A stretch of DNA of 64,000 nt from Hoeflea sp. (lineage in GTDB: Bacteria; Pseudomonadota; Alphaproteobacteria; Rhizobiales; Rhizobiaceae), in the NCBI RefSeq assembly GCF_019084245.1, contig NZ_JAHRFE010000022.1, one strand, 5' to 3'. Numbering within the stretch: position 1 is the stretch's first letter; each line of letters starts with the position of its first letter. The notes under the pieces are model-generated. The model worked only from the letters and a program-made list of their open reading frames with translations. It searched no databases and was not told the origin of the DNA. Below are positions 6,165 through 63,682 of this stretch, one piece after another. Both the position numbers and the translations under genes were made by a program.

Positions 6165-6166
6165 GG

Positions 6167-6745: not shown

Positions 6746-6764
6746 GGCGGCCTCCTAGGTTAAA

Positions 6765-6845: not shown

Positions 6846-6875
6846 TTGTGCGAAGCTTTGAGAATGGGAAACGAG

Positions 6876-7319: not shown

Positions 7320-7324
7320 ATTAC

Positions 7325-7687: not shown

Positions 7688-7876
7688 TTCCTCTTTATGA
7701 AAGGGGCGACCATCATCCCGATGGCCGCCCCAGTGCGGTTCGGCAGAACCGCTTTTGCGCGTCGGACATCACCCCGACACTTGGCCACCCATCAGCACGC
7801 TATGACCTTCAGAAGGTGGCGGCTCGTGCTGACAGTTAAGGATTGACCCAACCCCAAGGATACGCCGCCGGATTGG

Positions 7877-8263: not shown

Positions 8264-8332
8264 GGGTATTCCTTTCAAAAGGGGAAGCGGGCCGCCGAAG
8301 CGGCCCTATAGGATGTTCCGTATGGAAACGGC

Positions 8333-9475: not shown

Positions 9476-10012
9476 CTAGATTCCCTTAATTGTCTGATTG
9501 GTTTTGTTGATCGCCGCGACCAATGCGGCGAAGTCCGTGCCGCTATTTTTGACGGACGTGACGGTCGCGGATTCGTTCATCGGAAACGTCACAATTGACG
9601 CCTCCCGAAGTTCGATTTCGTGGAGAAGGCGGGCGCCTTGTTTGCGGTCCATTTCGTCGCGGATTGTGCGGAATCCGATGGAGATTCCATCAACCGCCTC
9701 AGCCTTCATGAAGGCGTAAACCTCGCGGCCCTTGACTGTATCAAGGAGGATTCTGCCCTCGGCTCGCAGGCCAAAGGCGTCCTCTTCAAATTTGGTCCAT
9801 ACGCCAATCGGCTCCGTCGTGTCGTGCTGCCACAACATCTTGACCTTGCGCGCCGGGTACTTCTGCAGGCTGCTTTTGAACGCGCCAGGCATAACGATAT
9901 CGCCGCCGCGGTCTTTGACTCCGAACACACTGGCATAACCAGAGAACGTGCCGTCTTCTGCGATCGCCTTGATATCAAGCTCAATCGCGGCGCCCTGTGT
10001 GGTGGTGGTCAT
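9476..10012 (-). CDS. HK97-family prohead protease
   Basis: FSGYASVFG, MLWQHD, GISIGF, EASIVTFPMN. Confidence 0.95.
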   Translation of the reverse strand: MTTTTQGAAIELDIKAIAEDGTFSGYASVFGVKDRGGDIVMPGAFKSSLQKYPARKVKMLWQHDTTEPIGVWTKFEEDAFGLRAEGRILLDTVKGREVYAFMKAEAVDGISIGFRTIRDEMDRKQGARLLHEIELREASIVTFPMNESATVTSVKNSGTDFAALVAAINKTNQTIKGI

Positions 10013-11226: not shown

Positions 11227-11638
11227 CGGCAGCCTCCTTTACAATGGACTGCACAATGCTGCCGATTGGAATCACGATCGTCGAAACGTCGAATTTCAGC
11301 CTTGGCACGTCGCGGTCGGAAATGATGCGAGGCGAGCCGCATGCCCGCCTCATGACGGCCGGTGCGACTAGCAAGGCGTCTGCGGCCGGTGGCGTCCGCA
11401 GATTTTGAGCGGCGGCTGCGATAGCCATCAGCCATGAGCGGCCGGCTCGCTCCAGTTCAAAAGCAATGCGAAGCACTGCGACGTCTTGGATGCTAAACCA
11501 GCGCCTGCCCTTGCGCTTCTCCGAGAACAGGACGTCGAGGGTCCGATTGCGGCTGATGATGACGTCTAGATGTTTGCGTGAGAGGCCGACGATTCGCGCG
11601 GCCTCGGCGACTGTGAGGTCGCGCGTTGTCCAGGCCAT
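11210..11638 (-). CDS. MerR-like HTH protein at the head of the packaging operon
   Basis: LTVAEAARIVGLS...GRRWFSIQDV...ELERAG; GGAGG RBS. Confidence 0.7.
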   Translation of the reverse strand: MAWTTRDLTVAEAARIVGLSRKHLDVIISRNRTLDVLFSEKRKGRRWFSIQDVAVLRIAFELERAGRSWLMAIAAAAQNLRTPPAADALLVAPAVMRRACGSPRIISDRDVPRLKFDVSTIVIPIGSIVQSIVKEAADVAIQ

Positions 11639-11681
11639 TGGGCGGCCTCCTACGATGGTTAGAATTTCGAAAAGGCAAACA

Positions 11682-11729
11682 AAAAGCTGCGCCAGTGAAG
11701 CGTCTTGCGTTCAAACTGGCGCAGCTTTT
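11682..11729 (-). terminator. intrinsic terminator-like hairpin upstream of the head operon
   Basis: perfect 15-bp IR AAAAGCTGCGCCAGT / ACTGGCGCAGCTTTT followed on the minus strand by a U-rich run. Confidence 0.6.
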
Positions 11730-11867
11730 ACAACCTCGCACCGTTGCAGGACGCGCCGGCGCGGAGGCGATCAACCCACTGTGCGAAAGCGGGGATCAGT
11801 GAATTGATGGTGAGTAACCGCGCGCGGCCACCCACCGGCCGGCGCGGTGAAGCGCGCCGAAACAGAA

Positions 11868-11891
11868 AAAGGCCGCATCGCTGCGACCTTT
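11868..11891 (-). terminator. intrinsic terminator-like hairpin
   Basis: minus strand AAAGGTCGCA-GCGA-TGCGGCCTTT then TTCTGTTT; GNRA loop. Confidence 0.55.
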
Positions 11892-11934
11892 CCCATAAAT
11901 ACCCTTTGGCGTGCTGAAATGGGGTACCCCAACC

Positions 11935-12654
11935 CTATGCGGCCCTAACCCCGCGCCAATATCGATCAACGATTTCGAAGCCGTCAAATATGCGTGCCCG
12001 CGCCTCGCCCTTGGCGCCCTTCACGCCGGCGCCCAGCAGTTTGCCGATTTCTTCAAGGGTGAGTCCATCAAGAACAGACCATTCAAACGCGGCTAGTATT
12101 TTCGGAACAAAGCCCAGCCTTGCGCGGAGGTAGGCCAAGTCCCGTCCCGCATCGATTGCGGCCAGCAAAGGCCAGTCGCCATTCCATGCCTTGGGCACTG
12201 GCTTGGCGTTCTGGCGCGGGGCGATTGCCACGTTTGCCTTCCGTCCCTCCACCTGTTTCACACCCTTGTCGCGGCCGCTCTCGTCCTGATCGCGCAGGAG
12301 GTAAAGGTCATCAAGCGCCTGGCCTTTCAGTTCGGGCAGATGCGCCATGTCGCTCAACTCTCGATAGCTCTCCGCAAGGCGGAGACAGTAGGCGTTGCCT
12401 TCAGTCTTAAGAAGCTTGGCTAGAGGCCAATCCTGATTATCGTTCGCGGCCTGGCCGCTGTACTTGCTTGATCCGATGCGCGCCGCCTGCGAGGCCAGCC
12501 GCCATTCTAGTGTAGGTCCATCCTCGATCGCCTTGCCGCGGGCTGCGGGCTTTGTCCGCGGTGGTGTCCAGTCATTGGCCGGTTCAATGATTTTCTGCAG
12601 CGTATGTCGGCGATCGAAAACCGCCGGGTCCTTCAAATCCATGTCTTCACCCAT
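11935..12654 (-). CDS. putative late transcription regulator with C-terminal sigma-70 region-4-like HTH
   Basis: DGLTLEEIGKLLG HTH; position between replication and head genes; start 12654 or 12642 uncertain. Confidence 0.55.
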   Translation of the reverse strand: MGEDMDLKDPAVFDRRHTLQKIIEPANDWTPPRTKPAARGKAIEDGPTLEWRLASQAARIGSSKYSGQAANDNQDWPLAKLLKTEGNAYCLRLAESYRELSDMAHLPELKGQALDDLYLLRDQDESGRDKGVKQVEGRKANVAIAPRQNAKPVPKAWNGDWPLLAAIDAGRDLAYLRARLGFVPKILAAFEWSVLDGLTLEEIGKLLGAGVKGAKGEARARIFDGFEIVDRYWRGVRAA

Positions 12655-12870
12655 GGTTAGTGTGTCGTCGTACCGGACAGGCCGGCGGCTAGTGGGTGGC
12701 TGCATAAAAGGAAATAGTAATTTCGCTGAATTTCCGCCACTATATTTATGCGGCCAGCTCAACTAAAAGCGGCGCATATCCGAAATTCGTCAAGTCCTGC
12801 TGTCCAGCTTCTTGCAAACATCAAGAAGCTCATCCCCGCTACGGACCGCTTCACCACTTATCAGCCTCTA

Positions 12871-13002
12871 CACGTTACACGCGTTACATACACATACACT
12901 ACATGTATGTGTATGTAACGCTGTGGTGTAACGCTTGCAGGCTATGATGTGGCCGCGTGACAAGGCGTTACAATTGTAGTGTTATGTAACGCTCTGTAAC
13001 GC
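12871..13002. other. putative replication origin: 18-bp palindrome plus CGTTACA/TGTAACG repeats
   Basis: GCGTTACATACACATACA (12881-12898) / TGTATGTGTATGTAACGC (12904-12921); further (G)CGTTACA or TGTAACGC copies nearby. Confidence 0.65.
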
Positions 13003-14079
13003 TGGTCTAAGATCAAATTTCCCATCAATCTCGATTAAAAATTCATCTGTCAAAGCGGCCCTCTGCCTTGAAAACCTTTGTCTTTTCGTGCCGTCCTTTA
13101 TATCGCCAGCCGCTTCATAGACCGCGGCCCGCCACTGATCTTCAGTCACAGGCGCATTGTCGTTGGCGGCAATGGCGGCCCGTAGAACCGCAGTCGCCTC
13201 GCCAATCGCGCGGCTAGCCTTTTGTAGCGGTTTTGTCACGCTCGGCGGTGCGCAGGGCACAAGAACCGGCGCCGTGGTGGCAATGCCATCGTGCTCGGCG
13301 AGCGTGACCGTTTCCATTCGATAGGTGCGGATCGGCCTGTCTGCCGACTCGTTGTTCTTCATCACTTGAGCCGTTGAAACGTCCCGCTTGCGGGTGATGA
13401 GGATAGACATATCGGCAGCCGCCTGTAGTTGCCCGCCGCCGCGCATGCGCTTCTCTCCGCTCACTGGCGTGTGGTGCACCACGACCACGGTGCAGCCGAA
13501 CGTTTGGCCGTCATGAAAATTTCCGCACCGCGTCGCGTCCGTCAGATTAAACACGGCACGCGCCATCCCGTCGGGGCTGGAATCGCTTACACTCATCGCC
13601 GCCGCCAGGGTGTCAATAACGACAACTTCAATGCTGTCATCCAACATCAGGTTGGCGGTTCGCAAAATCGCGCGCAGGGCATACGGCTCGGCTAAATCAA
13701 TCGGTCCGTCATAAACCAATACGTTGTCAAACGGCTCGCCGTCGTGGTGTTTGATGAACGCATCAATGCGCCGCTCAACCTGGCCCGCGCGTTCGGCCGC
13801 GATGTAAAGCACGTTTGACCGATACGGCAACGTGCCGCCGTCAAAGTCCAGACCAGCCGCAAGCCGGCATGTAACGTCAACAGCAAAAACGGACTTTCCA
13901 GCCTCAGAGGGTCCGTAAATCACAAGCAAGTCATTAGTCGCAACCCAGCCAGGCATGCGCCAATACTTACGAATATCGCGGCCTTCGCGGTTGTGGATCT
14001 TCAAATTGCTGGATATTTCAGAATACAAATTTTGATCTGTATCAAAATCTGACCAGTCAACACTTGACAAATTTGTCAT
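12982..14079 (-). CDS. RepA-type (AAA_25, RecA-like) replicative helicase
   Basis: Walker A GPSEAGKS, Walker B VVIDTL, VVVHH, RGGGQL; no N-terminal primase domain evident. Confidence 0.85.
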   Translation of the reverse strand: MTNLSSVDWSDFDTDQNLYSEISSNLKIHNREGRDIRKYWRMPGWVATNDLLVIYGPSEAGKSVFAVDVTCRLAAGLDFDGGTLPYRSNVLYIAAERAGQVERRIDAFIKHHDGEPFDNVLVYDGPIDLAEPYALRAILRTANLMLDDSIEVVVIDTLAAAMSVSDSSPDGMARAVFNLTDATRCGNFHDGQTFGCTVVVVHHTPVSGEKRMRGGGQLQAAADMSILITRKRDVSTAQVMKNNESADRPIRTYRMETVTLAEHDGIATTAPVLVPCAPPSVTKPLQKASRAIGEATAVLRAAIAANDNAPVTEDQWRAAVYEAAGDIKDGTKRQRFSRQRAALTDEFLIEIDGKFDLRPALQSVT

Positions 14080-14150
14080 AATGCCCTATTCTCCTTTATG
14101 TGTAATTGAACAATTTGCCCGCCCTGATTTTTCAGTGGCGGGCTTTTTTT
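14064..14150 (+). ncRNA. predicted promoter plus ~50-nt counter-transcribed RNA upstream of the helicase gene
   Basis: TTGACA (14064-69)-N17-TATTCT (14087-92); hairpin 14117-14143 followed by T7 on the plus strand only. Confidence 0.55.
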
Positions 14151-14152
14151 GG

Positions 14153-14353
14153 TTAGTCGATAGTGTCTTCCGCTTCCCTGGCTGCGAACTCGGCCATATC
14201 TTTCCGCTTCGCCGGATCCTCGATCCGGATCATTCCTTGAATAACCATAAGCGAGGCAGCCCCGTCAGATGGAAGGCCCACGGCCATCAACTGGCTGATC
14301 GCATCCTCAATAATTTCGCGGGCCTTCTGATTCTTGTAGTCGCCGACCTTCAT
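14153..14353 (-). CDS. small hypothetical protein
   Basis: ATG overlaps the alpA TGA (ATGA); MKVGDYKNQKAREII... Confidence 0.65.
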   Translation of the reverse strand: MKVGDYKNQKAREIIEDAISQLMAVGLPSDGAASLMVIQGMIRIEDPAKRKDMAEFAAREAEDTID

Positions 14354-14562
14354 GCTGCAGCCCTCGCCTGTACCTTTGTCCTTATCCACGCCATCACCTC
14401 AGAGCGAACAAACGCCACTCGCCTGTCGCCAAGCTCTACGGCGATCGGGAATCTGCCTTCGGCGCGGTAGCGGTTGAGCATCGTGCGCGACATGCTGGTC
14501 ATGCGGCAGGCGTCGTTCAACGAAACCAGCGTTGGTTCATTATCGTTCGCGGCTTTTTCCAA
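14350..14562 (-). CDS. alpA: AlpA-family regulator/excisionase
   Basis: AAGGAA RBS plus TTG; SLNDACRMTSMSRTMLNRY...FP.....G.RRVAF..SEV..WI. Confidence 0.88.
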   Translation of the reverse strand: MEKAANDNEPTLVSLNDACRMTSMSRTMLNRYRAEGRFPIAVELGDRRVAFVRSEVMAWIRTKVQARAAA

Positions 14563-14710
14563 TTTAATTTCCTTCCGGGGTTGACAGGTTTGCAGGAAAT
14601 GGTAGATTGACATCAGTGCTTCAATTGGGCTATCTGTTGATTGCTTACATCAGAGATGCCAGTCTGAAATCTAGTTGCATCTTACAAAAATGTCAACATG
14701 GCCGCTTTGG

Positions 14711-15886
14711 CTATTGGCAGTAGTCTGCCCATTCGCCCATCAGAGCGCGCCGCCGCTCCAAAGCATCCGACCGGGCGTAAGACCTTTCAACCGCATCGCC
14801 AACCGCATGACAGAGCGCCGCTTCTGCTATTTCGCGGGGCGCATGCGCGACTTCGGTTGCCCAATCGCGGAAGGTCGATCGGAACCCGTGAACCGTATAG
14901 GCGGCCGCCCCTGCCGATTTCAGCGCCTTTGCCAAGCTCATATCGGAAAGCGGCTTTCCGGCGCGCACGCCGGGGAAAACAAGATCGTTTACTGATTGCG
15001 CTTTCATAACCTTTAGCACCGCCAAGGCCGCGCCTGACAGCGGCACGCGATGCGGCTTGCCTCCCTTCATCCTTATGGCCGGAATCGTCCAGACGGCCGA
15101 CTCTATGTCAATCTCCCCCCATGTCGCGCCTCGGGCTTCCCCACTGCGCGCCGCCGTCAATATGGTGAACTCCAGCGCCCGCGCCCCGACGCCCTTGATC
15201 TTTGCCAGCGACCGCATGAAGGTCGCCACATCTTCATGCGGCATAGATGCGTGATGACGGGCCGCGACAAGCGCGTTCGGCTTGTGCAGCACATGCTCAA
15301 GATTGCCCTTCCACGCGGCTGGATTGTCGCCGGTTCGGTGTCCATCGACGCGGCTCGCGTCCAGAACGCGCTCAATCGATTCCCGCAACTTTTCGGCGGT
15401 TTCCTGCTTCACACCCCAAAGCGGTTCCAAGACCTTTTTGATGTCCTGAATGTCAATGTCGCCGATCGGCCGCCCGCGTATCGCAGCGGCATGGTTATTG
15501 ATTGCGTTCCGCCATCGCGCCTCGGTTTTCGCGCCGCGCCATTTGCCAGCCTTGACGGCGCGGTCAATGAACTTGTCGGCATAGGCTCCAAACAGGACCA
15601 CGGCAGGCGTAGAAGCCTCGACTTCGCGCTTGTCGCGAATCGGATCGACTCCGGCCCGCACCATTGCACGCGCCTTCTGTGCCGCTTCCCGCGCATCTGC
15701 CAGACTAACAGAATGAAGCGGGCCTATGCCCATTTCACGCCGTCTGCCAAACAAGGTGTAGTTGAAGATCCAGTACCGGCCGGTGCCCTTTGTGACCAGC
15801 CACAGACCACCACCATCACGCAGCTTGAGCGCCTTGCTTGCCGCGATTCCTTTGACCGTCAGGACGTTTTTTGTATGGCTCCCCAT
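14711..15886 (-). CDS. int: P4-family tyrosine integrase
   Basis: arm-binding N-terminus DGGGLWL...REMGIG; catalytic TAARSGE, HGFR, RSY. Confidence 0.95.
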   Translation of the reverse strand: MGSHTKNVLTVKGIAASKALKLRDGGGLWLVTKGTGRYWIFNYTLFGRRREMGIGPLHSVSLADAREAAQKARAMVRAGVDPIRDKREVEASTPAVVLFGAYADKFIDRAVKAGKWRGAKTEARWRNAINNHAAAIRGRPIGDIDIQDIKKVLEPLWGVKQETAEKLRESIERVLDASRVDGHRTGDNPAAWKGNLEHVLHKPNALVAARHHASMPHEDVATFMRSLAKIKGVGARALEFTILTAARSGEARGATWGEIDIESAVWTIPAIRMKGGKPHRVPLSGAALAVLKVMKAQSVNDLVFPGVRAGKPLSDMSLAKALKSAGAAAYTVHGFRSTFRDWATEVAHAPREIAEAALCHAVGDAVERSYARSDALERRRALMGEWADYCQ

Positions 15887-15890
15887 CGTC

Positions 15891-53349: not shown

Positions 53350-53405
53350 TGGTGCGGACGACGGGAATCGAACCCGTACAGCCTCGCGGCCGAGGGATTT
53401 TAAGT
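53350..53405 (-). other. att junction: 3' half of tRNA-Leu(TAA) from the anticodon loop to CCA
   Basis: minus strand CTTAAAATCCCTCGGCCGCGAGGCTGTACGGGTTCGATTCCCGTCGTCCGCACCA; the 5' side (ACGAA) cannot pair with TCCCT; no D arm. Confidence 0.85.
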
Positions 53406-53572: not shown

Positions 53573-54763
53573 TTGCCCGTCCTATCCGACGATTTCGTGC
53601 AGAATCGTATCGCCCTTCGTGGTCGAGACGAACTGATTATCCGTGACAGCAAGCTCACCGGCTTCGCGCTCCGCGTTCGCCGCCGCGCCGACGGGTCACT
53701 GTCGAAAGTATTCTTCGTGACGCACGAAATCCCGTCGGCCGATGGGAAGCGGCGCCGACGCAAAATCATGATCGGCGACCATGCCACCTTCCCTGCCGAG
53801 AAGGCGCGAGCCGAAGCTCAGGCCATGTTGCAGGCTTTCAAGGTTGGTGACGATCCTGGCGCCGCTCGCGCTGCCAAGAGGGCACAACCGCTTTTTGAGG
53901 ATCTTGTTGCCGAGTTCGAAGAGTCTCACCTGCCCGAAAAGGCGGCAGCGACGCGCAAGGATTACCTTGGTCGCATTCGCCGGAACCTGCTTCCCGAGTT
54001 CAAGGGTCGGCGCGTGGCGGACATCACGGCAGAGATGGTGCGCGCCTTCATGCGAAAGAAGCGGGCCAATCCTATCGATGCAAACCGCTCCCTCGCCGTC
54101 CTGTCGAAGATGATGAGCCGCGCGATTGAACTGGACATGCGGAAGGACAACCCCTGCTCCCGGATTACCAAGAACAAGGAAACAGCGCGCGAGCGTTGGC
54201 TGGACGAAACCGAACTGCCTGTCTTCGTTAAGGCGCTGGCTGCTGTGGAAGGGCCGCACGGCGATTGCATCCGGTTCCTTACTGTCACCGGCTGGCGCGT
54301 CTCTGAGGCCTTGTCCCTGACTTGGGATATGGTCGATCTGCCGCGCTTGGTTGCGCGCCTTCCTGAGACGAAGACCGGGGTCAGTGTCCGGGCGCTGTCG
54401 ACCGACGCGGCGACGATCCTTGACGGCCAGCCGCACCGGGTCGGCTTCATATTCTCTGGCCGCCGCGGGACGCAACCCATTTCTTATAAGCGCTTGCGAG
54501 AAGTCCTCACCAAGGTTTGCGCGGCTGCGAAGATTGATCCGATAACGCCCCACGTCCTTCGCCATACAGCGGCGACATGGGCAGCTATCAGTGGAGCCGA
54601 GGCGCACGAGTTACGCGAAGCGTTCGGCTGGAAGACGCTGGCGATGACGGCGCGCTATGTGTCGAAGTCGGAAAGTCTCGCGCGCCGTGGTGCCCAACGC
54701 GCGGCGGACGCGATGAACGTTCTGCAGAAGCCATCCGCGGCAGTGGAGGTGCTGCGCAAATGA
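53573..54763 (+). CDS. int: tyrosine integrase with arm-binding domain
   Basis: RDSKLTGFALR, TGWRVSE, KTG, HVLRHT, RY. Confidence 0.93.
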   Translation: MPVLSDDFVQNRIALRGRDELIIRDSKLTGFALRVRRRADGSLSKVFFVTHEIPSADGKRRRRKIMIGDHATFPAEKARAEAQAMLQAFKVGDDPGAARAAKRAQPLFEDLVAEFEESHLPEKAAATRKDYLGRIRRNLLPEFKGRRVADITAEMVRAFMRKKRANPIDANRSLAVLSKMMSRAIELDMRKDNPCSRITKNKETARERWLDETELPVFVKALAAVEGPHGDCIRFLTVTGWRVSEALSLTWDMVDLPRLVARLPETKTGVSVRALSTDAATILDGQPHRVGFIFSGRRGTQPISYKRLREVLTKVCAAAKIDPITPHVLRHTAATWAAISGAEAHELREAFGWKTLAMTARYVSKSESLARRGAQRAADAMNVLQKPSAAVEVLRK

Positions 54764-55176
54764 CACCTGAACAAGGTCGCAAGGAATACGCTCGAATCCT
54801 CAATGATGAGCTTAACCTGGGCAATAAGGACGTGAAATGGCTGCTGGCGGCGGCGATGCGGCTAGAGGGTGACCCCTTAGCGCAACTTATTGTGGACCTC
54901 TTGGAGGGCACTCATTCCAGTGGAATAAAGCTCGAGCTAGCCGGCGGTCGAAGAGGAAAGCGAAGACGCGATGACTATGAAGATATGCAGATCGCAATCC
55001 TGGATCTAGTCGTTGATTTGGGTCAACCGCTGGAGTCAGCGTTGGCAGCTATCGAGGCCAAGTTTAACTATAGGAGATCGCAGATACACACGGCCTACAA
55101 GGCGGGGCTACAGGACCGTCTCTCTCTGAATGAAAAGCTTGGACCCAAGAGCGAGTCCGACATATTCGGCGATTAA
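54760..55176 (+). CDS. hypothetical protein coupled to int
   Basis: ATGA overlap with the int stop. Confidence 0.6.
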   Translation: MTPEQGRKEYARILNDELNLGNKDVKWLLAAAMRLEGDPLAQLIVDLLEGTHSSGIKLELAGGRRGKRRRDDYEDMQIAILDLVVDLGQPLESALAAIEAKFNYRRSQIHTAYKAGLQDRLSLNEKLGPKSESDIFGD

Positions 55177-55253
55177 ACCGGATCGAATATTGTTGTTTGA
55201 ATGAATATCGTGCGTAATGTGTCTGTCACCTTCACAAACAGAAAGGTGACGAT

Positions 55254-55568
55254 ATGGACCTTCCCGCATCCAAACTCTTTTCGCAGCGCATGGCGCATTG
55301 GACTGGCAACGGCCTGTCCGGTGCGGCGCTATACCAGCGACTCGCCGAAGATGACGAGTTGCCGATTTCCTTCGATCCGACCGAAACGGCAGCCATCATT
55401 GGCGTCAATCCGCTCAGCCTCAAGAAGCAACGCAACCGTGGCACCGGGCCTGAGTTCATGCGAGCATCCGAACGGGCGGTTCGCTACCCTCGCCCGTCGC
55501 TTTGCATGTACCTGGCTAGCCGCTATGTCACCCGCGATGCCGGTTCGATCACAGGAAGGGCAGCGTAA
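55254..55568 (+). CDS. AlpA/excisionase-like HTH protein
   Basis: ETAAIIGV...SL...R..G.GP.F......VRY. Confidence 0.8.
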   Translation: MDLPASKLFSQRMAHWTGNGLSGAALYQRLAEDDELPISFDPTETAAIIGVNPLSLKKQRNRGTGPEFMRASERAVRYPRPSLCMYLASRYVTRDAGSITGRAA

Positions 55569-55759
55569 TGCCCTGCCCTGACCCCATCGAAAAAGCTGCC
55601 CGATGGCTTGCTGAGAACCGCGGCGGAATGACCCGGCCGATCATTCCAACGCTTCGCGATCAGTTCGGGCTCGATTTCGACGATGCGATCCGGGCTTCTG
55701 TCCTGGCCGCGAAGATCGAATATGTCGAAGCTCTGCCGAGCGAGAGGGCCAACCAATGA
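55568..55759 (+). CDS. small prophage hypothetical protein
   Basis: TAATG overlap; AARWLA...PIIPTLR.QFGL. Confidence 0.65.
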   Translation: MPCPDPIEKAARWLAENRGGMTRPIIPTLRDQFGLDFDDAIRASVLAAKIEYVEALPSERANQ

Positions 55760-55968
55760 CGAAGGACGAAGCGCTTGCACTGGTGCTGGCTTACCGAGCC
55801 CACGGCGGCACCCGAAGGGCAATCGTCCTCAGAGGCGGCAACCTGGGTATCGACATTTGGGAGGGCGACGACGGCGCCGCCCTTGCGTTCTGGCGGAAAT
55901 ACTTCGTGCCGTTGGACGACGCCGGCCGCGCCGCGATCTTGAAGGCGCTCGCTGAGGTGCCGGCATGA
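55756..55968 (+). CDS. small hypothetical protein
   Basis: ATGA overlaps at both ends. Confidence 0.6.
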   Translation: MTKDEALALVLAYRAHGGTRRAIVLRGGNLGIDIWEGDDGAALAFWRKYFVPLDDAGRAAILKALAEVPA

Positions 55969-56429
55969 AAAAGAATTTCAAGCGGAAAGGCAAAGGCAAA
56001 TTCATCATGCTCGATGGATATGTGAAGCGCTCTGCTGCCTGGAAGGATCTCACGCCGAATGACCGTTGCGCTTATCTTGAGGTCAAGTGGCGCTTTGACG
56101 GCGTGAACAACGGCCGAATCGGACTTGGTTGTCGCGAACTCGCCGAAGAGCTTGGCTGCAGCAAGATGACCGCGCTTCGGAGTCTCGAAAACCTTCAGCA
56201 GAAAGGGTTCATCTCAAAGGCCAAGGCGAGCGGCTTCAACCGTAAGGACAGGGTCACTGCTGAGTGGCGTTTGACCGAGTACCCTTGCGATGTGACGGGT
56301 GAATTGCCGACAAAAGAGTTCACACGTTGGGGCTCTCACGAAAAAACAACAGTATCACCAGAAGGACACACAGTATCACCACGAGGACACCTCGAGAGCG
56401 AAAAGGGGGTGAAATATGCCTCACAGTAA
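55965..56429 (+). CDS. winged-HTH replication initiator-like protein
   Basis: NNGRI.L..RELAEELG.S..T..R.L..LQ.KGFI; iterons within its 3' end. Confidence 0.7.
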   Translation: MKKNFKRKGKGKFIMLDGYVKRSAAWKDLTPNDRCAYLEVKWRFDGVNNGRIGLGCRELAEELGCSKMTALRSLENLQQKGFISKAKASGFNRKDRVTAEWRLTEYPCDVTGELPTKEFTRWGSHEKTTVSPEGHTVSPRGHLESEKGVKYASQ

Positions 56430-56477
56430 CACCCATGATACTGTCAGGCCCGGTTTCCGCCTTTCACAGTATCACCA
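56349..56477. repeat. iteron-like repeats ACAGTATCACCA
   Basis: exact copies at 56349, 56370, 56466; variant at 56423; inverted TGATACTGT at 56436. Confidence 0.75.
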
Positions 56478-56513
56478 CGGGTACACATATATATCTACCA
56501 TAGGGGAGGAGCG

Positions 56514-56822
56514 TTGATGACGACTGACGACCTTCCTCTGTTCGGGTGGACCCCGCCTGCGCCACGTCGTCAAGTCCTGCTCTTCCCGATGATCAACCGG
56601 GTAGGCAAAATCCGACACGTCGCGAAGTTGCTTTCCACCAAGAACGGTGATGACGCTGACCTGTATTGGCGACAAATCCGATCAGGTCTGCAGAAGCAAC
56701 TTGAGCGTGTCGGCGCTACCCAGCACGAAATCGATACAGAGATCCGGGCATTCTTCCAAGCCGTCCAGGCTGAGCTGGTTCGGATCACATACTTTGATCG
56801 GAACAACGGAGGTGCAGCATGA
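56514..56822 (+). CDS. DUF6074-like prophage protein
   Basis: DLPLFGW...VLLFP...RVGKIRHVA. Confidence 0.65.
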   Translation: MMTTDDLPLFGWTPPAPRRQVLLFPMINRVGKIRHVAKLLSTKNGDDADLYWRQIRSGLQKQLERVGATQHEIDTEIRAFFQAVQAELVRITYFDRNNGGAA

Positions 56823-57346
56823 CGAAAAGCAATCGTCTCCCTATGCTGGCTGAAGTCGCCAACACTCACCATGACGCAGCGGTGGCCGCACTTCGCATTG
56901 CGGCCGATACCGCCCGTGTCGCCGGCAATGCGCTCCTGGAGGCAAAGACCCTTGTTCCGCACGGTAAATGGGCTGGGTGGATTAAGGCCAACTTTCGAGG
57001 CGGCATGCGCACCGCTCAGAGATACATGAAGGTCGCGAAGAATTGGGAGACGATCGCAGGCAAAAACGACAGCGTGTCGCTTTTGACGGTGACGCAAGCC
57101 CTCGAGCTTCTTGACGGCGGCGACGAGCTTGAACGAGCGCTAAAGAACCAAGCCGAAGCGGAAGCCATCCATTCGGAATTGAAGTTCATGGACCAGGCGC
57201 TCGCAACCGCCGACGCCGATGGCCTCAATCACATCATCGCCCGCGTCGAAGAGATCAACCGCCGCTTGGTCGACCTTCGCGACGTTGCCATCCGCGAATC
57301 CTGCCGGCTTCGCAAGGAACTCGACGCATTGAAAGAAACGGCCTGA
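56819..57346 (+). CDS. DUF3102-domain protein
   Basis: G..L.EAK..VPHG.W..WI...F....RTAQRYM. Confidence 0.75.
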   Translation: MTKSNRLPMLAEVANTHHDAAVAALRIAADTARVAGNALLEAKTLVPHGKWAGWIKANFRGGMRTAQRYMKVAKNWETIAGKNDSVSLLTVTQALELLDGGDELERALKNQAEAEAIHSELKFMDQALATADADGLNHIIARVEEINRRLVDLRDVAIRESCRLRKELDALKETA

Positions 57347-57392
57347 AAATTTCTCCCGGTCGAAAAACACCCAAAACCTGAAAGGAAATGAC

Positions 57393-57716
57393 ATGACCCG
57401 AGATTTAGACGAACTCGACCAAGCGCTGATACAAGCCGCGCGCCAGAAAATTGTCGATTTGCCGCATGTTGTCGGCGTGATCGATGGCAACGTGCCCGGC
57501 GAATTTCTGGTGCTTACCTTCCAGGAGGCCGAAGACGGCGACCAAGGTATGACGCTTGAAACATGGACTGTCGCCGGACCGAGCGGGGAGAAGCCCGGCG
57601 AGTTCATGGTGTCATTCCGTCCCGCGCACCTTGAGGCGCTGGCTCACCTGATGACAGAAGGCCGGAAGTTATTGGAGCGCGAAGCCAAGGTCGCCGCGCC
57701 CGGAACTGCGAACTGA
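57393..57716 (+). CDS. hypothetical protein
   Basis: AAGGA RBS, ORF. Confidence 0.55.
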   Translation: MTRDLDELDQALIQAARQKIVDLPHVVGVIDGNVPGEFLVLTFQEAEDGDQGMTLETWTVAGPSGEKPGEFMVSFRPAHLEALAHLMTEGRKLLEREAKVAAPGTAN

Positions 57717-57732
57717 TCGAAAGGACACGACC

Positions 57733-57831
57733 ATGACCGACACACCCGAAACGATCCGCGAGGCGAAAGCCAGCGCCGAAAAGGCTTGGCGAGAGAGTCA
57801 GGCCGCCGAAGCGAAAGGCGGTGCAGCATGA
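57733..57831 (+). CDS. 32-aa peptide coupled to the Ntn-like gene
   Basis: AAGGA RBS, ATG 57733, TGA overlapping ATG 57828. Confidence 0.45.
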   Translation: MTDTPETIREAKASAEKAWRESQAAEAKGGAA

Positions 57832-58514
57832 GTGCGATCAACGTATTCCTTACGGATGAAGCCGCCCATGTCTTCACCGATGGCGCAATGTACGACCTTG
57901 ATGCCGGCGGCAAGATTTTAGGAGTTTGCTCCAAGCCTCTTACCCTGCCTCACCTCAATGCGGTCATCGCGTCCACGGGCTACATTTACGTGAACTATAT
58001 GTTGATGGGAGCTATCTGCGATTCGCGTGTCTCATCTTTTGATGAATTGAAGGATCACTTCGGTGCGATCGTGAAAAAGGCGTCAGCGGAGGCGCTGAAG
58101 ATTCCCGGCATGCCGAAAGGCCTTGGCTTCTTTGAAACCGTCATTGCAGGGTGGAGCGAGCGCGCCGACCGGCCGCAAGCCTACGCTATGGATCGAGGCT
58201 TCGGCGGCCTGGATGCGTCGAGGCCAATGCAAACCCGGAAGGTGTATCGCAAACCCGATCACCCCGAATTGCCGAAGACTAAGCGAACGGAACACGTTGA
58301 AGCGGACGGGCTCAGTCTGATGGAAGATCAGCGTCGACTTCTGTTCGGTTCTCACGATGCGCCAGGACTTGAAGCCCATGCCGTCGGGGGCTTCTGCCAG
58401 ATGACGACGGTCACCCGCGACGGCATTTCGATGAAGATCCTGCGGCGATGGCCGGATTTTATCGGCGAACCTATTTCCGTGACGCCTGACGCCGCTTCTT
58501 CGACCCTTTTTTGA
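57828..58514 (+). CDS. putative Ntn-hydrolase, proteasome-beta/HslV-like fold
   Basis: true start MSAINVF; S1, D17, K35, G50; VGG..TTVT...WPDF.G shared with 1672-2346. Confidence 0.6.
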   Translation: MSAINVFLTDEAAHVFTDGAMYDLDAGGKILGVCSKPLTLPHLNAVIASTGYIYVNYMLMGAICDSRVSSFDELKDHFGAIVKKASAEALKIPGMPKGLGFFETVIAGWSERADRPQAYAMDRGFGGLDASRPMQTRKVYRKPDHPELPKTKRTEHVEADGLSLMEDQRRLLFGSHDAPGLEAHAVGGFCQMTTVTRDGISMKILRRWPDFIGEPISVTPDAASSTLF

Positions 58515-58584
58515 TAGGCACAGCGCTGAAGCCGGCCCCGAAAAGGGCAGTGGTGATTGCCATGATGCCAGTGAAAATAGCCAT
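58471..58584 (-). CDS. 37-aa hydrophobic peptide with basic tail (tail-protein N-terminus remnant?)
   Basis: AGGAAAG RBS; MAIFTGIMAITTALFGAGFSAVPIKKGSKKRRQASRK. Confidence 0.4.
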   Translation of the reverse strand: MAIFTGIMAITTALFGAGFSAVPIKKGSKKRRQASRK

Positions 58585-58672
58585 GATCTTTCCTTTCATG
58601 ATTTGAGGCGGCACCATGCCGCCTCTCTCGTCTCTGGGAAGGGCGCCAGCCCGCTCAGAGTACTAACGGCCA

Positions 58673-60685
58673 TCAGGCGAGCCCTGCCTTCTGGTTCTTG
58701 GCGAACTTCGCTTCGGACTTCTGGACAGCAACATTAATGATAGTACCTGATGCCGTTTTGATCTGCTGATCCGCAATTGAAGCCATGCGCCCGCTGTCGT
58801 CTTGCAGGAAGATGGTCACGACATCGGACGATCTGCCGCCATCTTTGGGCATGTTGGATTTCAGGGTGCCGATAATTCCATCGGTTTGGTTATCGGTGAA
58901 GATGTTTTCCTTCTTCTGCACCAGCGCCATGACCTCATCATGCTTTGCCCGCTGCCCGCCGAAGTTGCCTCCTTGGTGGAATACCCCGGCGAACGGCGCT
59001 CCAGTTGGGAACGGGACCACACTGCCGCCGGTGCCGACTGTACCGCCATCATGGAACAGGCCTACGCTACCGAGCGCCAAGCTCGTCTGGGAAACGCCAC
59101 CGAACAAGCTGCTGAGGATGCCGCCGCCGCCGCCAAAGAGCCCGGCAAGCGGTCCGTTACCGAGGAGCGCGGCTTGAGCAACCGCCTTGATCAGGGTGTT
59201 GACGAATTGGTCGAGCGCGTCGTTGCCGGTCTTGATCTTCGGAACGAGGCTGTCGAAGGCATCGGCAGTTATGTCCTTGAAGAACTCCGCTGCTTCACTG
59301 GCCTGGCGCTGCGCCTCGGTCTCGTCATGGATGGCCTGGATCAGATCGACAATCGCAAGTTTCTGATCCTCGGTTGCCGCCGCTCCGGCCTGTCGAAGAG
59401 CTCGCGATTTATCCCGCTCGATATCGGTCATGCCGATTTCAGCGCGTTCTGTCTGGAGATCGGCGATCAGATCCTTGACGGCCTGGGCTTCCCTCAGAGC
59501 GGCCTCGGCAGCCTTGTTGCGGCTCTTGCTCGCCGTGCCCCCGGTGCCCCCCGTTACGGGCGTCGTGGCCGGTGGCAGCGTCCCTGCCCCTGTATCGCGG
59601 GAACTGAGGATGGCAAGGATCTCGGCTTCCGTCTTGGCGATTTCCTCGGCACGGGCCTTGAGCGCCAGAACGCCGGTATCAAGCTTTGCCTCGGCACCGG
59701 CCAGAACGGACGTGTTCCCGCGCTGCGCATCCTGGGCTTCAAGGATCTTCCGTTCGATCTCGAGCCGTTCAAGGCCAAGCTCCGCAAGCTGATTGTTGAG
59801 CCCGCGCGTTGACTGGTTTTCGATATTGCGCATCGAATCCACGACTTTTGCGAATTCAGATGCAAGCCCCGCAGCAAGCCGCGCCGTGGAAACAAGAAAC
59901 GGCGCCAGATCGATCAGCGCCTTCTTCAGTTCCAAATCCATGACCCGGCTAGCTGTCGATAGCTGATCGTTCATCTCTTCCGCCCGCACCAGAAGCTCGC
60001 GATCGATGACAATGCCGAGCTTCTGCGCCGCCGCTGCTGTCCTGTCGAAACCCGCCGAGCCATCTTTCAAAAGCTCGACCATTCGCGCGCCGTTGCGACC
60101 GAATGCTGCCGATGCAATCGCGGCCTTTTCGGTTTCCGATGTTGCAGCCTTCACCGCGTCCGCGACGAGGCGGAAGCGCTCTTCCTGGGTTTTCGCGCTT
60201 TGCAGTTGCTTGAGCAGTTCGGGGTTTAGCTGTTTTAATTTTCCGGCAAGTTCGCCCTGGCCGACCGCTGCAAGGCCGGAATTGCGAATGAAGGCGATCA
60301 GGCTGGCGTTTAATTCGTCGACGCCGACGCCGGCCAGATCGGCCCCGTAGGCCATTTCCTGATAAAAATCGGAACCGAGGCCGGTGGCCTTCGCGCTCTT
60401 CGCGATCTTGTCAAAATCAGCGACAGCATCACGTGCCTTGTTCAGCGCCGCGTTCATCGAAAGAATAGACCCAACCGATGCCACAGCGCCCGCTGCAAGG
60501 CCAGCGAAGGCCGCCGCACCTATGCCAGTTCCCAGCCCCGCAAACCGCCGCTGAAGAGCAAGAACGCCCTTGCCCATGCGTCCGGTGGTCTCATTCGTGA
60601 CCTTTTCACCGCGCCTGAGGCTTGCCTCGTAAGCTCTCAGATCGGCGTCAAGCGCGACCCTAATCGATCCAACTGTAGCTACCAT
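58673..60685 (-). CDS. phage tail tape-measure-like protein
   Basis: VGSIRVALDAD N-terminus, long Ala-rich helical body, C-terminal FHDGGTVG...DEV.A.VQK.E. Confidence 0.8.
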   Translation of the reverse strand: MVATVGSIRVALDADLRAYEASLRRGEKVTNETTGRMGKGVLALQRRFAGLGTGIGAAAFAGLAAGAVASVGSILSMNAALNKARDAVADFDKIAKSAKATGLGSDFYQEMAYGADLAGVGVDELNASLIAFIRNSGLAAVGQGELAGKLKQLNPELLKQLQSAKTQEERFRLVADAVKAATSETEKAAIASAAFGRNGARMVELLKDGSAGFDRTAAAAQKLGIVIDRELLVRAEEMNDQLSTASRVMDLELKKALIDLAPFLVSTARLAAGLASEFAKVVDSMRNIENQSTRGLNNQLAELGLERLEIERKILEAQDAQRGNTSVLAGAEAKLDTGVLALKARAEEIAKTEAEILAILSSRDTGAGTLPPATTPVTGGTGGTASKSRNKAAEAALREAQAVKDLIADLQTERAEIGMTDIERDKSRALRQAGAAATEDQKLAIVDLIQAIHDETEAQRQASEAAEFFKDITADAFDSLVPKIKTGNDALDQFVNTLIKAVAQAALLGNGPLAGLFGGGGGILSSLFGGVSQTSLALGSVGLFHDGGTVGTGGSVVPFPTGAPFAGVFHQGGNFGGQRAKHDEVMALVQKKENIFTDNQTDGIIGTLKSNMPKDGGRSSDVVTIFLQDDSGRMASIADQQIKTASGTIINVAVQKSEAKFAKNQKAGLA

Positions 60686-60808: not shown

Positions 60809-61999
60809 ATGCCATTGTTCGCCAGACTGCGACAGGTTTTCAGCGCACCGGATCGGAAGAGCCTGGCGAACCCGACCGAGGAGGAGCTGAGGCTGTTCAC
60901 CGGCGGCACCCTTGGCGGATCCTTCGCGGTCTCCGCGACCGAGGCGCTGCAGGTGCCATCCGTGCAGCTTGCAATCCGTCTGATCAGTGAAGGAGTCGCC
61001 GCTCTTGATCGCCGCGTGGTGCGGATCGATGGATTGCAACAGATCGACGCGCCCGACCATCCCGCAAGCCGCTTCCTGACCAGCCATTGGAACGACTGGA
61101 CCTCGCCTTTCGAAGGCGTCCGCGATCTGGTCTCTTCGGCGCTCACTCATGATTTCGGCGGCGTGCAGTGGCTCAACAAGCCCGACGGCGAGCTTCGGGA
61201 AATCGTCGCCTATCGGTCGCTCACGGTCCAATTCGATACCGACACCGGGGAACCGAGATATCAGCTTGGCACGCGCCCGCTGCCCGCCGATGAAATCGTT
61301 CATATCCGCGGCCCGTTCTCGCGAAGCCCGCTCAGCCTGGCACGCGAAAGCATCGGCGTTGCGCACCTCATGGCCGAACGCGCGGGCAAGCTGTTCAAGA
61401 ACGCGGCCCGGCCGGGCGGCTGGATTGAGTTCCCCGAATTTCTGGACGAAGACGCCTTCATCCGCATGAAAAAGAGTTGGGAAGAAGCGCACGGTTCATC
61501 CGAAAACAGCGGCAAGACCGCAATCCTCTACGCCGGCGGCAAGTTCCATGCTGCCGAGTTCAAGTCGACCGACGCTCAATTCCTCGAGCTGAAGAAAGAG
61601 CAGGTGGTCGAGATCGGCCGGGCCTTCGGCGTTCCGCCTTCGATGCTGTTCAATCACGACAGGGCGACCTGGTCGAACTATGAGACCGCCGCCCGGTCCT
61701 ACATGGTCGAGACGCTTGAAGCCTGGATTCGCGTCACTGAGGCAGCACTGACCCGCGCCTTGATCCCGGCTGGCGAGCGGAAGACGTACCGCGTTGTCAT
61801 CGATCGCGACGATCTCACCCGGGCCGACCTGGTGGCCCGCGCGACCGCGATCAACAGCCTTCGCGCTTCCGAGGTTCTTTCGGCAGATGAAGCCCGCGAT
61901 TGGTTGGGCATGGCCCCGCGGCCGGCTGATCGGCTCGACGATTACAAGAACCCAAACATCAACCCTGATCGCGCACCAGCGCCAGCGGAGGCCGCGTGA
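60809..61999 (+). CDS. HK97-family portal protein
   Basis: NAARPGG, EIGRAFGVPP, SADEARDWLGM. Confidence 0.95.
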   Translation: MPLFARLRQVFSAPDRKSLANPTEEELRLFTGGTLGGSFAVSATEALQVPSVQLAIRLISEGVAALDRRVVRIDGLQQIDAPDHPASRFLTSHWNDWTSPFEGVRDLVSSALTHDFGGVQWLNKPDGELREIVAYRSLTVQFDTDTGEPRYQLGTRPLPADEIVHIRGPFSRSPLSLARESIGVAHLMAERAGKLFKNAARPGGWIEFPEFLDEDAFIRMKKSWEEAHGSSENSGKTAILYAGGKFHAAEFKSTDAQFLELKKEQVVEIGRAFGVPPSMLFNHDRATWSNYETAARSYMVETLEAWIRVTEAALTRALIPAGERKTYRVVIDRDDLTRADLVARATAINSLRASEVLSADEARDWLGMAPRPADRLDDYKNPNINPDRAPAPAEAA

Positions 62000-62502
62000 T
62001 GGAACGCCTCTTCATCGAAACAAAGATTGTGGCGAGTGACGCCGGTTCCGTCTCAGGAATCGCCTGGAAATTTGGCGAGCCGGATCGCATCGGCGACTGG
62101 ATCGAACCGGGCGCATTCAAGGGCGCGAAGTTCCCGCTGCCGATGCTGTTCGGTCATGACATGAATGATCCGGTTGGAACCTGGGACACGGCCGAAGAGA
62201 AGGCAGACGGGTTTCACATCACCGGAAAGCTGTTGATCGAAGACGTTGCCCGCGCCCGCGAAGTCAATGCGCTGGTCAAATCCGGCGCGGTGCGCGGCCT
62301 GTCGATCGGCTTCATCACCAAAAAGGCCAGTGCCCGCTCAGGCGGTGGCCGCACCATCAAATCACTCGAATTGCTTGAGGCGTCCCTTGTGACGATCCCC
62401 ATGCATGCCGGCGCGAAGGTAACTTCCGCCAAGTCGGCAGTCCTGGCGCTCAACATCGCCGCTGCCATCAACCGCGCAACCGCGCATATCGAAAGGAATT
62501 GA
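61996..62502 (+). CDS. HK97-family prohead protease
   Basis: MLFGHD, GLSIGF, EASLVTIPMH. Confidence 0.93.
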   Translation: MMERLFIETKIVASDAGSVSGIAWKFGEPDRIGDWIEPGAFKGAKFPLPMLFGHDMNDPVGTWDTAEEKADGFHITGKLLIEDVARAREVNALVKSGAVRGLSIGFITKKASARSGGGRTIKSLELLEASLVTIPMHAGAKVTSAKSAVLALNIAAAINRATAHIERN

Positions 62503-62503
62503 G

Positions 62504-63682
62504 ATGAAACATCTCACCAAAGAAGCGCTGCGCGGAAGCGTGGCTATCGACCGAAAGGGCGATGACGAAGATCCGGTCAACCTCGTCACCAAGGCGCTGG
62601 ACGACCTGACCAAGTCGGTCGACGAGCGGCTGAAGAAGGTCGAGGAGAAGGCCGCCGCGCCGGACCTGACCAAGCTCGAGGACCGGCTGAAGGCAGTTGA
62701 GACGAAGGCCAACCGCCCGGCTGGTTCCGGCAATGCCGACGATCCGACCGAGGAGGCCAAGGCCGAGAAGAAGGCGTTTGGCACTTACCTTCGCCACGGC
62801 CAGCAGGCACCGACCGAGGAACTGAAGGCGCTCACCGTCTCGAATGACGAACAGGGCGGCTATCTTGCGCCGGCAGAAATGTCGACCGAGTTCATCCGCG
62901 ACCTGGTCGAGTATTCGCCCGTGCGTTCGGTGGCTTCGGTGCGCAACATCGCAGCACCTTCGGTGAAGTATCCGAAGCGCACCGCCGGCACGAACGCTCA
63001 ATGGGAAGGCGAAGCCGAGGACAGCGAAGAATCGACCGTCACTTTTGGTCAGGTGGAAGTTCCGGCCCGGAAGCTGATGACGTTCGTCGACATCTCGAAC
63101 GAGCTTCTGTCCGACAGCGGCGGCACCGCGGAGCAGGAAGTGCGCCTGGCGCTTGCCGAGGACTTCGGAAAGAAGGAATCGACGGCGTTCGTCAATGGCG
63201 ATGGCGTCAAGCAGCCGGAAGGTCTGATGACCAATGCGGACATCAGCAACACGATCAATGGTCATGCCACTGTCCTGGCGGCCGATCCGCTCATCACGCT
63301 GATGTATGCACAGCCGGCCATGTACCGGAATGCCGGCTCATGGATGATGAACGGCACCACGCTCGCCACCGTCCGGAAGCTGAAGGACGGCAATGGCAAC
63401 TATCTGTGGCAGCCGAGTTTCCAAGCTGGTCAGCCTGAGACCATCCTTGGCCGCCCGGTGATCGAAGCCGTCGACATGCCGGACATCGCGTCGGGCACGT
63501 TCCCGATCCTGTTCGGCGACTTCTCCGCCTATCGCATTGTCGATCGGCTGGCGATGTCGATCCTCGTCAACCCGTACTTGCTCGCAACCAAGGGCCTGAC
63601 CCGCATTCACGCAACCCGCCGTGTCGGTGGCCGCGTGCTTCAGGCTGCCCGGTTCCGCAAGCTCAAGATGGCCGCGTCGTAA
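62504..63682 (+). CDS. major capsid protein, HK97 fold
   Basis: GGYLAP, WEGE, YLWQP, LGRP, FGDF. Confidence 0.95.
   Translation: MKHLTKEALRGSVAIDRKGDDEDPVNLVTKALDDLTKSVDERLKKVEEKAAAPDLTKLEDRLKAVETKANRPAGSGNADDPTEEAKAEKKAFGTYLRHGQQAPTEELKALTVSNDEQGGYLAPAEMSTEFIRDLVEYSPVRSVASVRNIAAPSVKYPKRTAGTNAQWEGEAEDSEESTVTFGQVEVPARKLMTFVDISNELLSDSGGTAEQEVRLALAEDFGKKESTAFVNGDGVKQPEGLMTNADISNTINGHATVLAADPLITLMYAQPAMYRNAGSWMMNGTTLATVRKLKDGNGNYLWQPSFQAGQPETILGRPVIEAVDMPDIASGTFPILFGDFSAYRIVDRLAMSILVNPYLLATKGLTRIHATRRVGGRVLQAARFRKLKMAAS

Follow-up and report, generated by a model that had tools for sequence, protein, structure and literature searches.

Dozens of new, divergent proteasome homologues of bacteria, their functions unexplained, were catalogued by Fuchs, Alva and Lupas (2021). 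They include PPH and AAH, which are linked to phages, as well as RPC and DPH of Proteobacteria, and none of the catalogued families came with an informative genomic context (PMC8665760). AAH was reported in many phage genomes, PPH (~140 aa) and RPC do without helix H2, and RPC has an extra C-terminal domain (Fuchs et al., 2021; PMC8665760). A peptidase that is paired with a ubiquitin-like (Ub-like) protein is known from phage lambda, whose gpI (TAPI, Ub-like) and gpK (TAPK, combining JAB and NlpC/P60 domains) form a tail-assembly pair (Iyer et al., 2006; PMC1779556), with the JAB peptidase predicted to cut at the C-terminal Gly of the Ub-like domain, which is thereby freed (PMC1779556). Among phage satellites, finally, tape-measure genes were recently described in the EPIPs and, according to this preprint of December 2025, are otherwise not found in satellites (PMC12822802). 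Here, we analyze a gene from a 64,000-nucleotide stretch of Hoeflea sp. DNA (the window) that is predicted to encode an N-terminal-nucleophile (Ntn) hydrolase of ~25 kDa belonging to the proteasome-beta/HslV type. The window, which corresponds to the metagenome-assembled contig JAHIQK010000021.1, contains two head-module satellites, element 1 (1-16300) and element 2 (53350-64000), which are situated 37 kb apart on one chromosome and each carry a copy of this gene. Within the 25 elements sampled, the enzyme family marks small (~10-18 kb), capsid-encoding, tail-less satellite-like elements of Alphaproteobacteria.

The two enzyme genes and the small open reading frames (ORFs) coupled to them are listed below, with the evidence for each in brackets.

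57828..58514, plus strand: predicted proteasome-beta/HslV-fold Ntn-hydrolase homologue of element 2, 228 aa (AlphaFold2 (AF2) fold, family alignment)
57733..57831, plus strand: 32-aa ORF, with its stop overlapping the enzyme start as ATGA (ORF call)
1672..2346, minus strand: paralogue in element 1, 224 aa, GTG start (tblastn, BLASTP, family hidden Markov model (HMM), AF2)
2343..2558, minus strand: 71-aa hydrophobic, Gly/Ala-rich ORF with a basic C-terminus (stop overlapping the GTG start of the paralogue as GTGA)

Both proteins are predicted to adopt the four-layer alpha-beta-beta-alpha fold of proteasome subunits. Their AF2 models have a predicted local distance difference test score (pLDDT) of 87.8 and a predicted template modelling score (pTM) of 0.87 for the element-2 enzyme and of 90.4 and 0.88, respectively, for its element-1 paralogue. 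When compared with the PDB using Foldseek, the element-2 model gave 533 and the element-1 model 1075 matches at E<=1e-3; all of the 50 matches listed per model are 20S proteasome subunits or Anbu, with a probability of 1.00 and E-values of ~1e-8, and the TM-scores among these listed matches range from 0.5 to 0.73 (0.61 for Anbu 5nyg). The modelled succession of five strands, two helices, strands, one helix and strands is the order seen in proteasome beta subunits, with helices H1 (54-66) and H2 (71-89) both present. In the element-2 model, Asp18 ends strand 2, Lys36 precedes strand 4 and the conserved Gly follows it. A structure search of BFVD gave weak matches only, to other HslV-like phage proteins. 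The original prediction, made from the letters of the DNA, had described both proteins as Ntn/proteasome-like, a view strengthened by the retrieval of proteasome beta subunits and Anbu with both models and by the family-wide conservation of the putative nucleophile and the Asp/Lys pair.

The marked residues of the element-2 enzyme comprise the putative nucleophile Ser2 as well as Asp18, Lys36 and Gly51. Across the family, the conserved N-terminus reads M-S/T-A-I-N, and 152 of 161 family proteins begin with M-[ST]. The Asp, Lys and Gly residues that the original prediction had singled out (D17, K35 and G50, counted without the Met) are invariant or nearly so among 149 aligned homologues, with D18 retained in 149/149, K36 in 148/149 and G51 in 145/149 sequences, as is Gly108 (149/149). 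Moreover, all 28 enzyme copies found in the 25 elements start with M-[ST] and keep the Asp and Lys residues, including the second copies of tandem pairs. An hhalign comparison of the family with a hand-entered E. coli HslV sequence pairs T2 with T2, D18 with D18 and K36 with K34 (Thr1, Asp17 and Lys33 of the mature protein), although weakly (E=0.025); the same approach with a hand-entered Thermoplasma beta-subunit sequence yielded no meaningful alignment. In HslV, a small residue at position 2 enables methionine aminopeptidase to expose the nucleophile. Because residue 2 is small in the present enzyme, its initiator Met is expected to be removed, a step that, with no propeptide present, would bare Ser1 (Thr1 in most homologues) and let it act together with Asp17 and Lys35. 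Both the removal of Met and the catalytic activity are predictions.

A mechanical ORF call at the element-2 locus spans 57786-58514 and starts at a TTG codon. The family alignment places the true start at ATG 57828, where the conserved N-terminus MSAINV begins, exactly as proposed in the original prediction, and the coupling that it had noted, in which this ATG overlaps the stop of the 32-aa ORF, is likewise present. The C-terminal segment of the latter (...AEA..GGAA) resembles the end of a 165-aa upstream protein in a related element (L015); the 32-aa ORF is possibly a remnant, or one that serves coupling. Public gene calls give the element-1 paralogue a length of 216 aa, starting at an internal ATG, so that the conserved Met-Ser is lost. 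Conservation across the family, together with the overlap (GTGA) between this gene and the ORF preceding it, leads us to place its start at GTG 2346, corresponding to 224 aa. The string VGG..TT.T...I......WPDF.G, reported as a shared feature in the original prediction, is present in the C-terminal part of both window enzymes, and their similarity extends over the full length of the proteins, with 24% identity (tblastn, E=6e-7; pairwise BLASTP, E=1e-9) and matches to the family HMM at 8e-63 and 1.5e-35. The paralogue retains Ser2, Asp18, Lys36 and the Gly residue and is altered at S110G and Q168F.

An exhaustive profile search recovered 3,847 representative clusters at E<=1e-3, nearly all of them aligned from residue 1, and by these sequence comparisons the family is both large and unannotated. 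Neither window enzyme has a match in Pfam, NCBIfam or PADLOC, and a Pfam run on 117 homologues was equally negative; at the profile level, neither the two enzymes nor these 117 homologues group with PF00227. Sequence searches of the PDB with a single protein (phmmer) or a profile returned nothing relevant, and the profile hit no proteasome chain at E<=10. PHROGs gave a weak N-terminal match to phrog_13702 ('terminase large subunit'), which was taken as a mis-annotation and not used. When 50,697 records of phage genomes were searched by tblastn with the window protein, a central member or, at E<=0.1, the consensus, no match was obtained, a result to be read in light of the limited sensitivity of BLAST for a family this divergent. 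The original prediction had conceded that the homologues might turn out to be mostly ordinary phage tail-region genes lacking a conserved N-terminal Ser/Thr; instead, there are zero phage matches, and the Ser/Thr is conserved.

Genomic context was analyzed in a sample of 25 distinct elements, which were drawn from metagenome contigs, IMG/VR, plasmid records and one genome scan. The enzyme-bearing elements are small, encode capsids and are mostly integrative, with viral contigs of 9-30 kb, and a capsid gene lies inside the fetched locus in 19 of the 25. All named hosts (Methylorubrum, Methylobacterium, Bradyrhizobium, Brevundimonas and Bosea) are Alphaproteobacteria, with the genome scan contributing one locus, from a Bosea metagenome-assembled genome; searches with the element-1 protein alone and with a second sub-alignment added no further viral loci. 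A complete circular replicon of 16,127 bp, pB146-3 of Methylorubrum sp. B1-46 (L021, NZ_CP088250.1), combines a head module with genes for a tape measure, the enzyme and a DUF3168 tail-completion protein, and lacks an integrase. Deposited as a plasmid, this replicon is probably a satellite in episomal or excised form. The recurrence in capsid-encoding elements (19/25), set beside zero matches in 50,697 phage genomes, favors a conserved satellite function over random cargo, in line with the original prediction.

Several kinds of gene recur next to the enzyme gene. In 16 of the 25 elements, it is adjoined by a tape-measure gene, confirmed by homology and encoding a protein of 590-906 aa, which is almost always located immediately upstream and typically overlaps it by 4 nt as ATGA. 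When ten of these proteins were tested, nine showed similarity to PHROG tape-measure families; one carries Pfam TMP_2. The genes preceding the tape-measure gene are of the Neck1/tail-completion types, and a tail tube protein is found in one element only (L020). Element 2 and 15 related elements thus carry a tape-measure gene, often accompanied by a gp17-like tail-completion gene, and are not devoid of tail genes; element 1 has none of them. A second kind of neighbor, present next to the enzyme gene in 7 of the 25 elements, is a ThiS/lambda-gpI-like ubiquitin-like (Ubl) protein of ~160 aa, which consists of a ThiS-like domain ending in Gly and a subsequent Gly-rich hydrophobic tail. The top three PDB matches of its profile are ThiS 1f0z (E=1.6e-3), 2k5p and 2lek, with alignments that end at the C-terminal Gly-Gly of ThiS, and the profile also weakly matches 'putative tail assembly protein'. 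No Ubl gene was found in either window element, and the precomputed Pfam lists of L004, L005 and L024 contain no JAB or NlpC peptidase beside the Ubl genes. A third kind comprises small free peptides. In two elements (L009 and L011), a 40-aa ORF (MAIF..., basic tail) separates the tape-measure gene from the enzyme gene, and the 37-aa peptide encoded beside the element-2 enzyme is homologous to it, as the alignment score was reached by 0/1000 shuffles. Similarly, a Brevundimonas element has a 72-aa hydrophobic ORF as the counterpart of the 71-aa ORF that is coupled to the enzyme gene in element 1. Tandem enzyme copies occur in L009 (6000-7305), L011 (10001-11305) and L019 (8814-10592), positioned after the tape-measure or capsid gene; with Ser/Thr, Asp and Lys present in both copies, they would allow the formation of a hetero-oligomer.

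Taken together, we favor, at a probability of roughly 0.5, a reading in which the enzyme is an active Ntn peptidase with a morphogenetic role, serving the tape-measure/peptide module during the hijacking of helper tails; its substrate and this role are what we infer from the genes around it. The usual neighbors of its gene encode the satellite's tape measure and a small hydrophobic protein, in the form of either a free peptide of ~40-70 aa or a Ubl tail. The enzyme would act in the processing or maturation of this module as helper tails are built or borrowed by the satellite. By analogy, it would be a functional counterpart of the gpK (JAB/NlpC)/gpI pair of lambda. It is tempting to go further and view the enzyme as the peptidase, or connectase-like transpeptidase, of a minimal Ubl/proteasome-like pair, which cuts at the C-terminal Gly of the ThiS-like domain and matures the tape measure, although we give this more specific proposal a low probability. 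The cut would release or transfer the hydrophobic peptide, with helper tail parts then assembling around the tape measure of the satellite. If true, the satellite could own its DNA-entry device, independent of the helper tape measure and of exclusion mechanisms aimed at it.

The remaining features of element 2 are arranged as follows.

53350..53405, no strand assigned: attL, 56 bp that imperfectly repeat the 3' half of tRNA-Leu(TAA) (tRNA comparison)
53573-54763, plus strand: tyrosine integrase (phrog_1)
55965-56429, plus strand: helix-turn-helix/replication-initiator-like protein
56514-56822, plus strand: DUF6074 protein
56819-57346, plus strand: DUF3102 protein
57393-57716, plus strand: 107-aa ORF without assigned function
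58471..58617, minus strand: small membrane-peptide ORF directly after the tape-measure gene (ORF call)
58673..60685, minus strand: tape-measure protein, 670 aa, convergent with the enzyme gene (phrog_10574, E=3.5e-54)
60809..63682, plus strand: start of the head module, with portal, S78 protease and major capsid protein

Inserted at tRNA-Leu(TAA), element 2 measures 17.5 kb between the two tRNA-Leu att copies; the intact tRNA-Leu(TAA) and attR are located ~17.5 kb away, outside the window (L028 18308-18392). In the duplicated tRNA 3' half beside the integrase gene, the two 16-nt ends are identical, and the middle has diverged. The integrase and early genes span 53573..57716 on the plus strand, and the enzyme gene is the last co-directional gene after them. 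The membrane peptide probably starts at ATG 58584, giving a product of 37 aa (58471-58584, minus strand; MAIFTG...basic tail), and the 3' end of its gene overlaps that of the enzyme gene convergently by 44 bp. Past the window, the head module continues with genes for connectors, a gp17-like tail-completion protein, head closure and the small (TerS) and large (TerL) terminase subunits, and TerL is followed by a 287-aa Cys-rich protein. A near-perfect 17-nt inverted repeat (TCAACAATTGAGAACGA / TCGTTCACAATTGTTGA; window positions 60716-60760) with an 11-nt spacer occupies part of the 123 bp that separate the divergently oriented tape-measure and portal genes, and it looks like a putative late-gene operator.

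In related elements, the tape-measure gene is co-directional with the enzyme gene and located just upstream of it, whereas element 2 shows the reversed orientation. L013, for instance, has early genes, tape measure, enzyme and portal in this order, all pointing in the same direction. A close comparison is provided by L015, which has the same inverted arrangement as element 2 and is 84.6% identical to it at the nucleotide level over the N-terminal half of the tape-measure gene and the entire head module. The two are unrelated or highly diverged in the C-terminus of the tape measure, the enzyme (26% identity) and the early region. As far as this alignment goes, the inverted arrangement is a stable one, common to L015 and element 2. 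The enzyme gene thus stands at the end of the early operon in element 2 because the tape-measure and peptide half of the conserved module is inverted. The original prediction had emphasized the different operon contexts of the two window genes, with the enzyme ending the early operon in element 2 and lying beyond the terminases in element 1. This layout is correct and the positions do differ, but the difference is partly the product of a rearrangement. A 24-nt inverted repeat with 79% complementarity (TGAAAGGAAA..ATG), located at 57372-57395 and 58582-58605, brackets the enzyme gene and extends over the ribosome-binding sites and start codons of the 107-aa ORF and of the small peptide ORF. It was the sole pair found in a search for repeats that might account for the inversion; it is unconvincing as a recombination site and may represent a chance similarity or a trace of rearrangement.

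Element 1 is encoded on the minus strand, with the following genes in addition to those named above.

4136..15886, minus strand: core of element 1, with a layout like that of capsid-forming phage-inducible chromosomal islands (cf-PICIs)
14711-15886, minus strand: integrase (phrog_1)
12982-14079, minus strand: primase/helicase, D5-type
10009-11226, minus strand: portal
9476-10012, minus strand: protease
8333-9475, minus strand: capsid
7325-7687, minus strand: HNH protein
6167-6745, minus strand: adaptor
5757-6176, minus strand: TerS
4136-5791, minus strand: TerL
975-1613, minus strand: SRAP (SOS-response-associated peptidase) gene directly downstream of the paralogue (PF02586, E=1.7e-22; phrog_1599)

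The paralogue lies downstream of TerS/TerL, in a cargo region, and has a hydrophobic peptide ORF, but no tape-measure gene, at its side. Between TerL and the paralogue, there is a low-GC stretch (2600-4100; 0.53 vs ~0.60), which includes a 293-aa ORF (3197-4078, minus strand) that has no family match, appears by eye to be hydrophobic at both termini and is unrelated to the Cys-rich protein encoded after TerL in element 2. An att repeat was searched for in element 1 and not found. Both elements possess the cf-PICI-type gene set, comprising integrase, portal, protease, capsid, connector and terminase genes within a small element. Their head modules have a common ancestry, with portal proteins that are 43% and capsid proteins that are 49% identical; the integrases and the enzymes are each 24% identical. 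The integrases had been called unrelated in the original prediction, but their 24% identity extends over 179 aa and both belong to phrog_1, making them distant members of one tyrosine-recombinase family. The idea of a helper prophage nearby was rejected, as the 37 kb between the elements are ordinary chromosome.

Several observations weigh against a morphogenetic peptidase that serves the tape-measure/peptide module. The 25 elements sampled for context are few compared to the ~3,850 clusters of the family. In 9 of them, element 1 included, there is no tape-measure gene beside the enzyme gene, so that the enzyme is not strictly dependent on a tape measure encoded in cis, and Bradyrhizobium plasmids carry an orphan enzyme gene with no visible element around it. 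When the free peptides were compared with the C-terminal tails of the Ubl proteins, the score was reached by 2-5 of 200 shuffles for three peptides, and those of L009 and L011 gave no signal; the similarity therefore does not appear to be clearly above compositional expectation. Moreover, a free peptide without a Ubl domain would leave nothing obvious to cleave. Finally, the enzyme diverges much faster than the head genes, both between the two window elements (24% vs 43-49% for portal and capsid) and between L015 and element 2 (26% vs ~85% at the nucleotide level), a pattern for which a protein of interaction, specificity or conflict would account no less well than a housekeeping maturation protease.

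The most probable alternative is an accessory conflict protease, encoded in a variable hotspot and directed against proteins of the helper phage or the host in the service of interference, counter-defence or exclusion, with the proximity to the tape-measure gene reflecting common module boundaries rather than a common function. In its favor, evolution or exchange has altered the enzyme far more rapidly than the neighboring head genes, and the enzyme gene occupies variable positions, following TerL, capsid, primase or tape-measure genes in different elements. The element-1 copy, situated among low-GC cargo close to the SRAP peptidase and membrane-protein genes, and the tandem duplications in L009, L011 and L019 also fit this picture. 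However, there is no PADLOC match, the 4-nt coupling to tape-measure, Ubl or peptide genes recurs in distant elements, and the catalytic residues never decay, not even in the duplicated copies. We consider such a role unlikely.

Alternatively, the fold could act as a mere scaffold, making the protein a non-catalytic assembly factor, such as a ring adaptor or a tape-measure chaperone that stands in for gpG/GT-type or distal-tail proteins. The slot just after the tape-measure gene is where siphophages encode tail-tip proteins, and the elements with a tape-measure gene have no recognizable chaperone genes, with those upstream being of the Neck1/tail-completion types. In addition, proteasome homologues typically form 6- or 7-fold rings (PMC8665760). 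Nevertheless, the near-universal Ser/Thr following the Met and the invariant Asp/Lys pair would be difficult to account for if the protein were not catalytic; the alpha subunits of the proteasome, which are catalytically inactive, instead have N-terminal helical extensions (PMC8665760). This solution thus appears improbable to us. An early regulatory protease, acting in repressor cleavage or the control of induction, is very unlikely, because the co-directionality with the early genes that suggests it in element 2 is explained by the inversion (with the same layout in L015 and the co-directional form at the same place in L013) and because, despite a Brevundimonas locus (L023) in which the enzyme gene follows the primase gene, most elements have it among the late/structural genes, where it follows that for the tape measure, TerL or the capsid.

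A morphogenetic peptidase, our preferred reading, would make the recurrent tape-measure/peptide/enzyme module a pointer to an undescribed mode of helper-tail hijacking. Whatever its exact role, the family offers a first functional clue from context, given its association with capsid-forming satellites, a satellite tape measure and, sometimes, a Ub-fold protein, and it constitutes a tractable bacterial setting for a stand-alone proteasome-like enzyme beside a ubiquitin-like protein. Cultured carriers are available in Methylorubrum sp. B1-46, with plasmid pB146-3 (WP_231347186.1), and Methylobacterium bullatum.

Among the known proteasome-type proteins, the enzyme resembles HslV, the 20S beta subunits, Anbu and BPH in its predicted alpha-beta-beta-alpha Ntn fold and the equivalent positions of Asp and Lys, and it shares with HslV the absence of a propeptide and a Thr/Ser directly after the initiator Met. 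Unlike these bacterial proteasome homologues, it has no sequence-level match to Pfam Proteasome or any PDB chain. Compared to HslV, it is also ~50 residues longer, owing to an insertion between residues 120 and 160, and it is encoded on mobile satellites rather than by a housekeeping gene. An HslU-like AAA+ partner was not seen in the neighborhoods with precomputed Pfam annotation, in which the only AAA gene, that of pB146-3, is small and distant. With PPH, RPC, DPH and AAH, the family has in common that they are divergent proteobacterial homologues, some of them phage-borne, with a Thr/Ser-Asp-Lys triad and no propeptide. The presence of both H1 and H2, a length of 228 aa and the lack of an extra domain set it apart from PPH and RPC as described, and the absence of phage matches distinguishes it from AAH. 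Nevertheless, it may overlap with DPH or AAH, to which it was compared by description only.

The parallel to lambda gpI/gpK lies in a ThiS-like Ub-fold protein in which a C-terminal Gly is joined by a Gly-rich linker and one more C-terminal segment, and which is encoded beside a peptidase and immediately downstream of the tape-measure gene. The peptidase, however, is of the proteasome-type Ntn class rather than a JAB or NlpC enzyme, and the Ubl protein occurs in 7/25 elements but in neither window element, suggesting functional likeness and not membership. Equivalents of gpJ, gpL and gpM were not identified, with no search aimed at tail-tip genes. Like cf-PICIs, the elements are small and integrative, have their own portal, protease, capsid, connector and terminase genes and, with the exception of L020, lack a tail tube gene; and, like EPIPs (PMC12822802), many of them carry a tape-measure gene. 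They differ from both in their alphaproteobacterial hosts and in the proteasome-like enzyme, which is not known to have been listed among satellite genes. A full-text literature search produced no paper that ties proteasome-like or Ntn proteins to phage satellites, and, given the statement of the EPIP preprint that satellites otherwise lack tape-measure genes, the combination of tape measure and enzyme appears to be an undescribed module. The family thus places a known enzyme superfamily in a context that is new, consistent and experimentally approachable.

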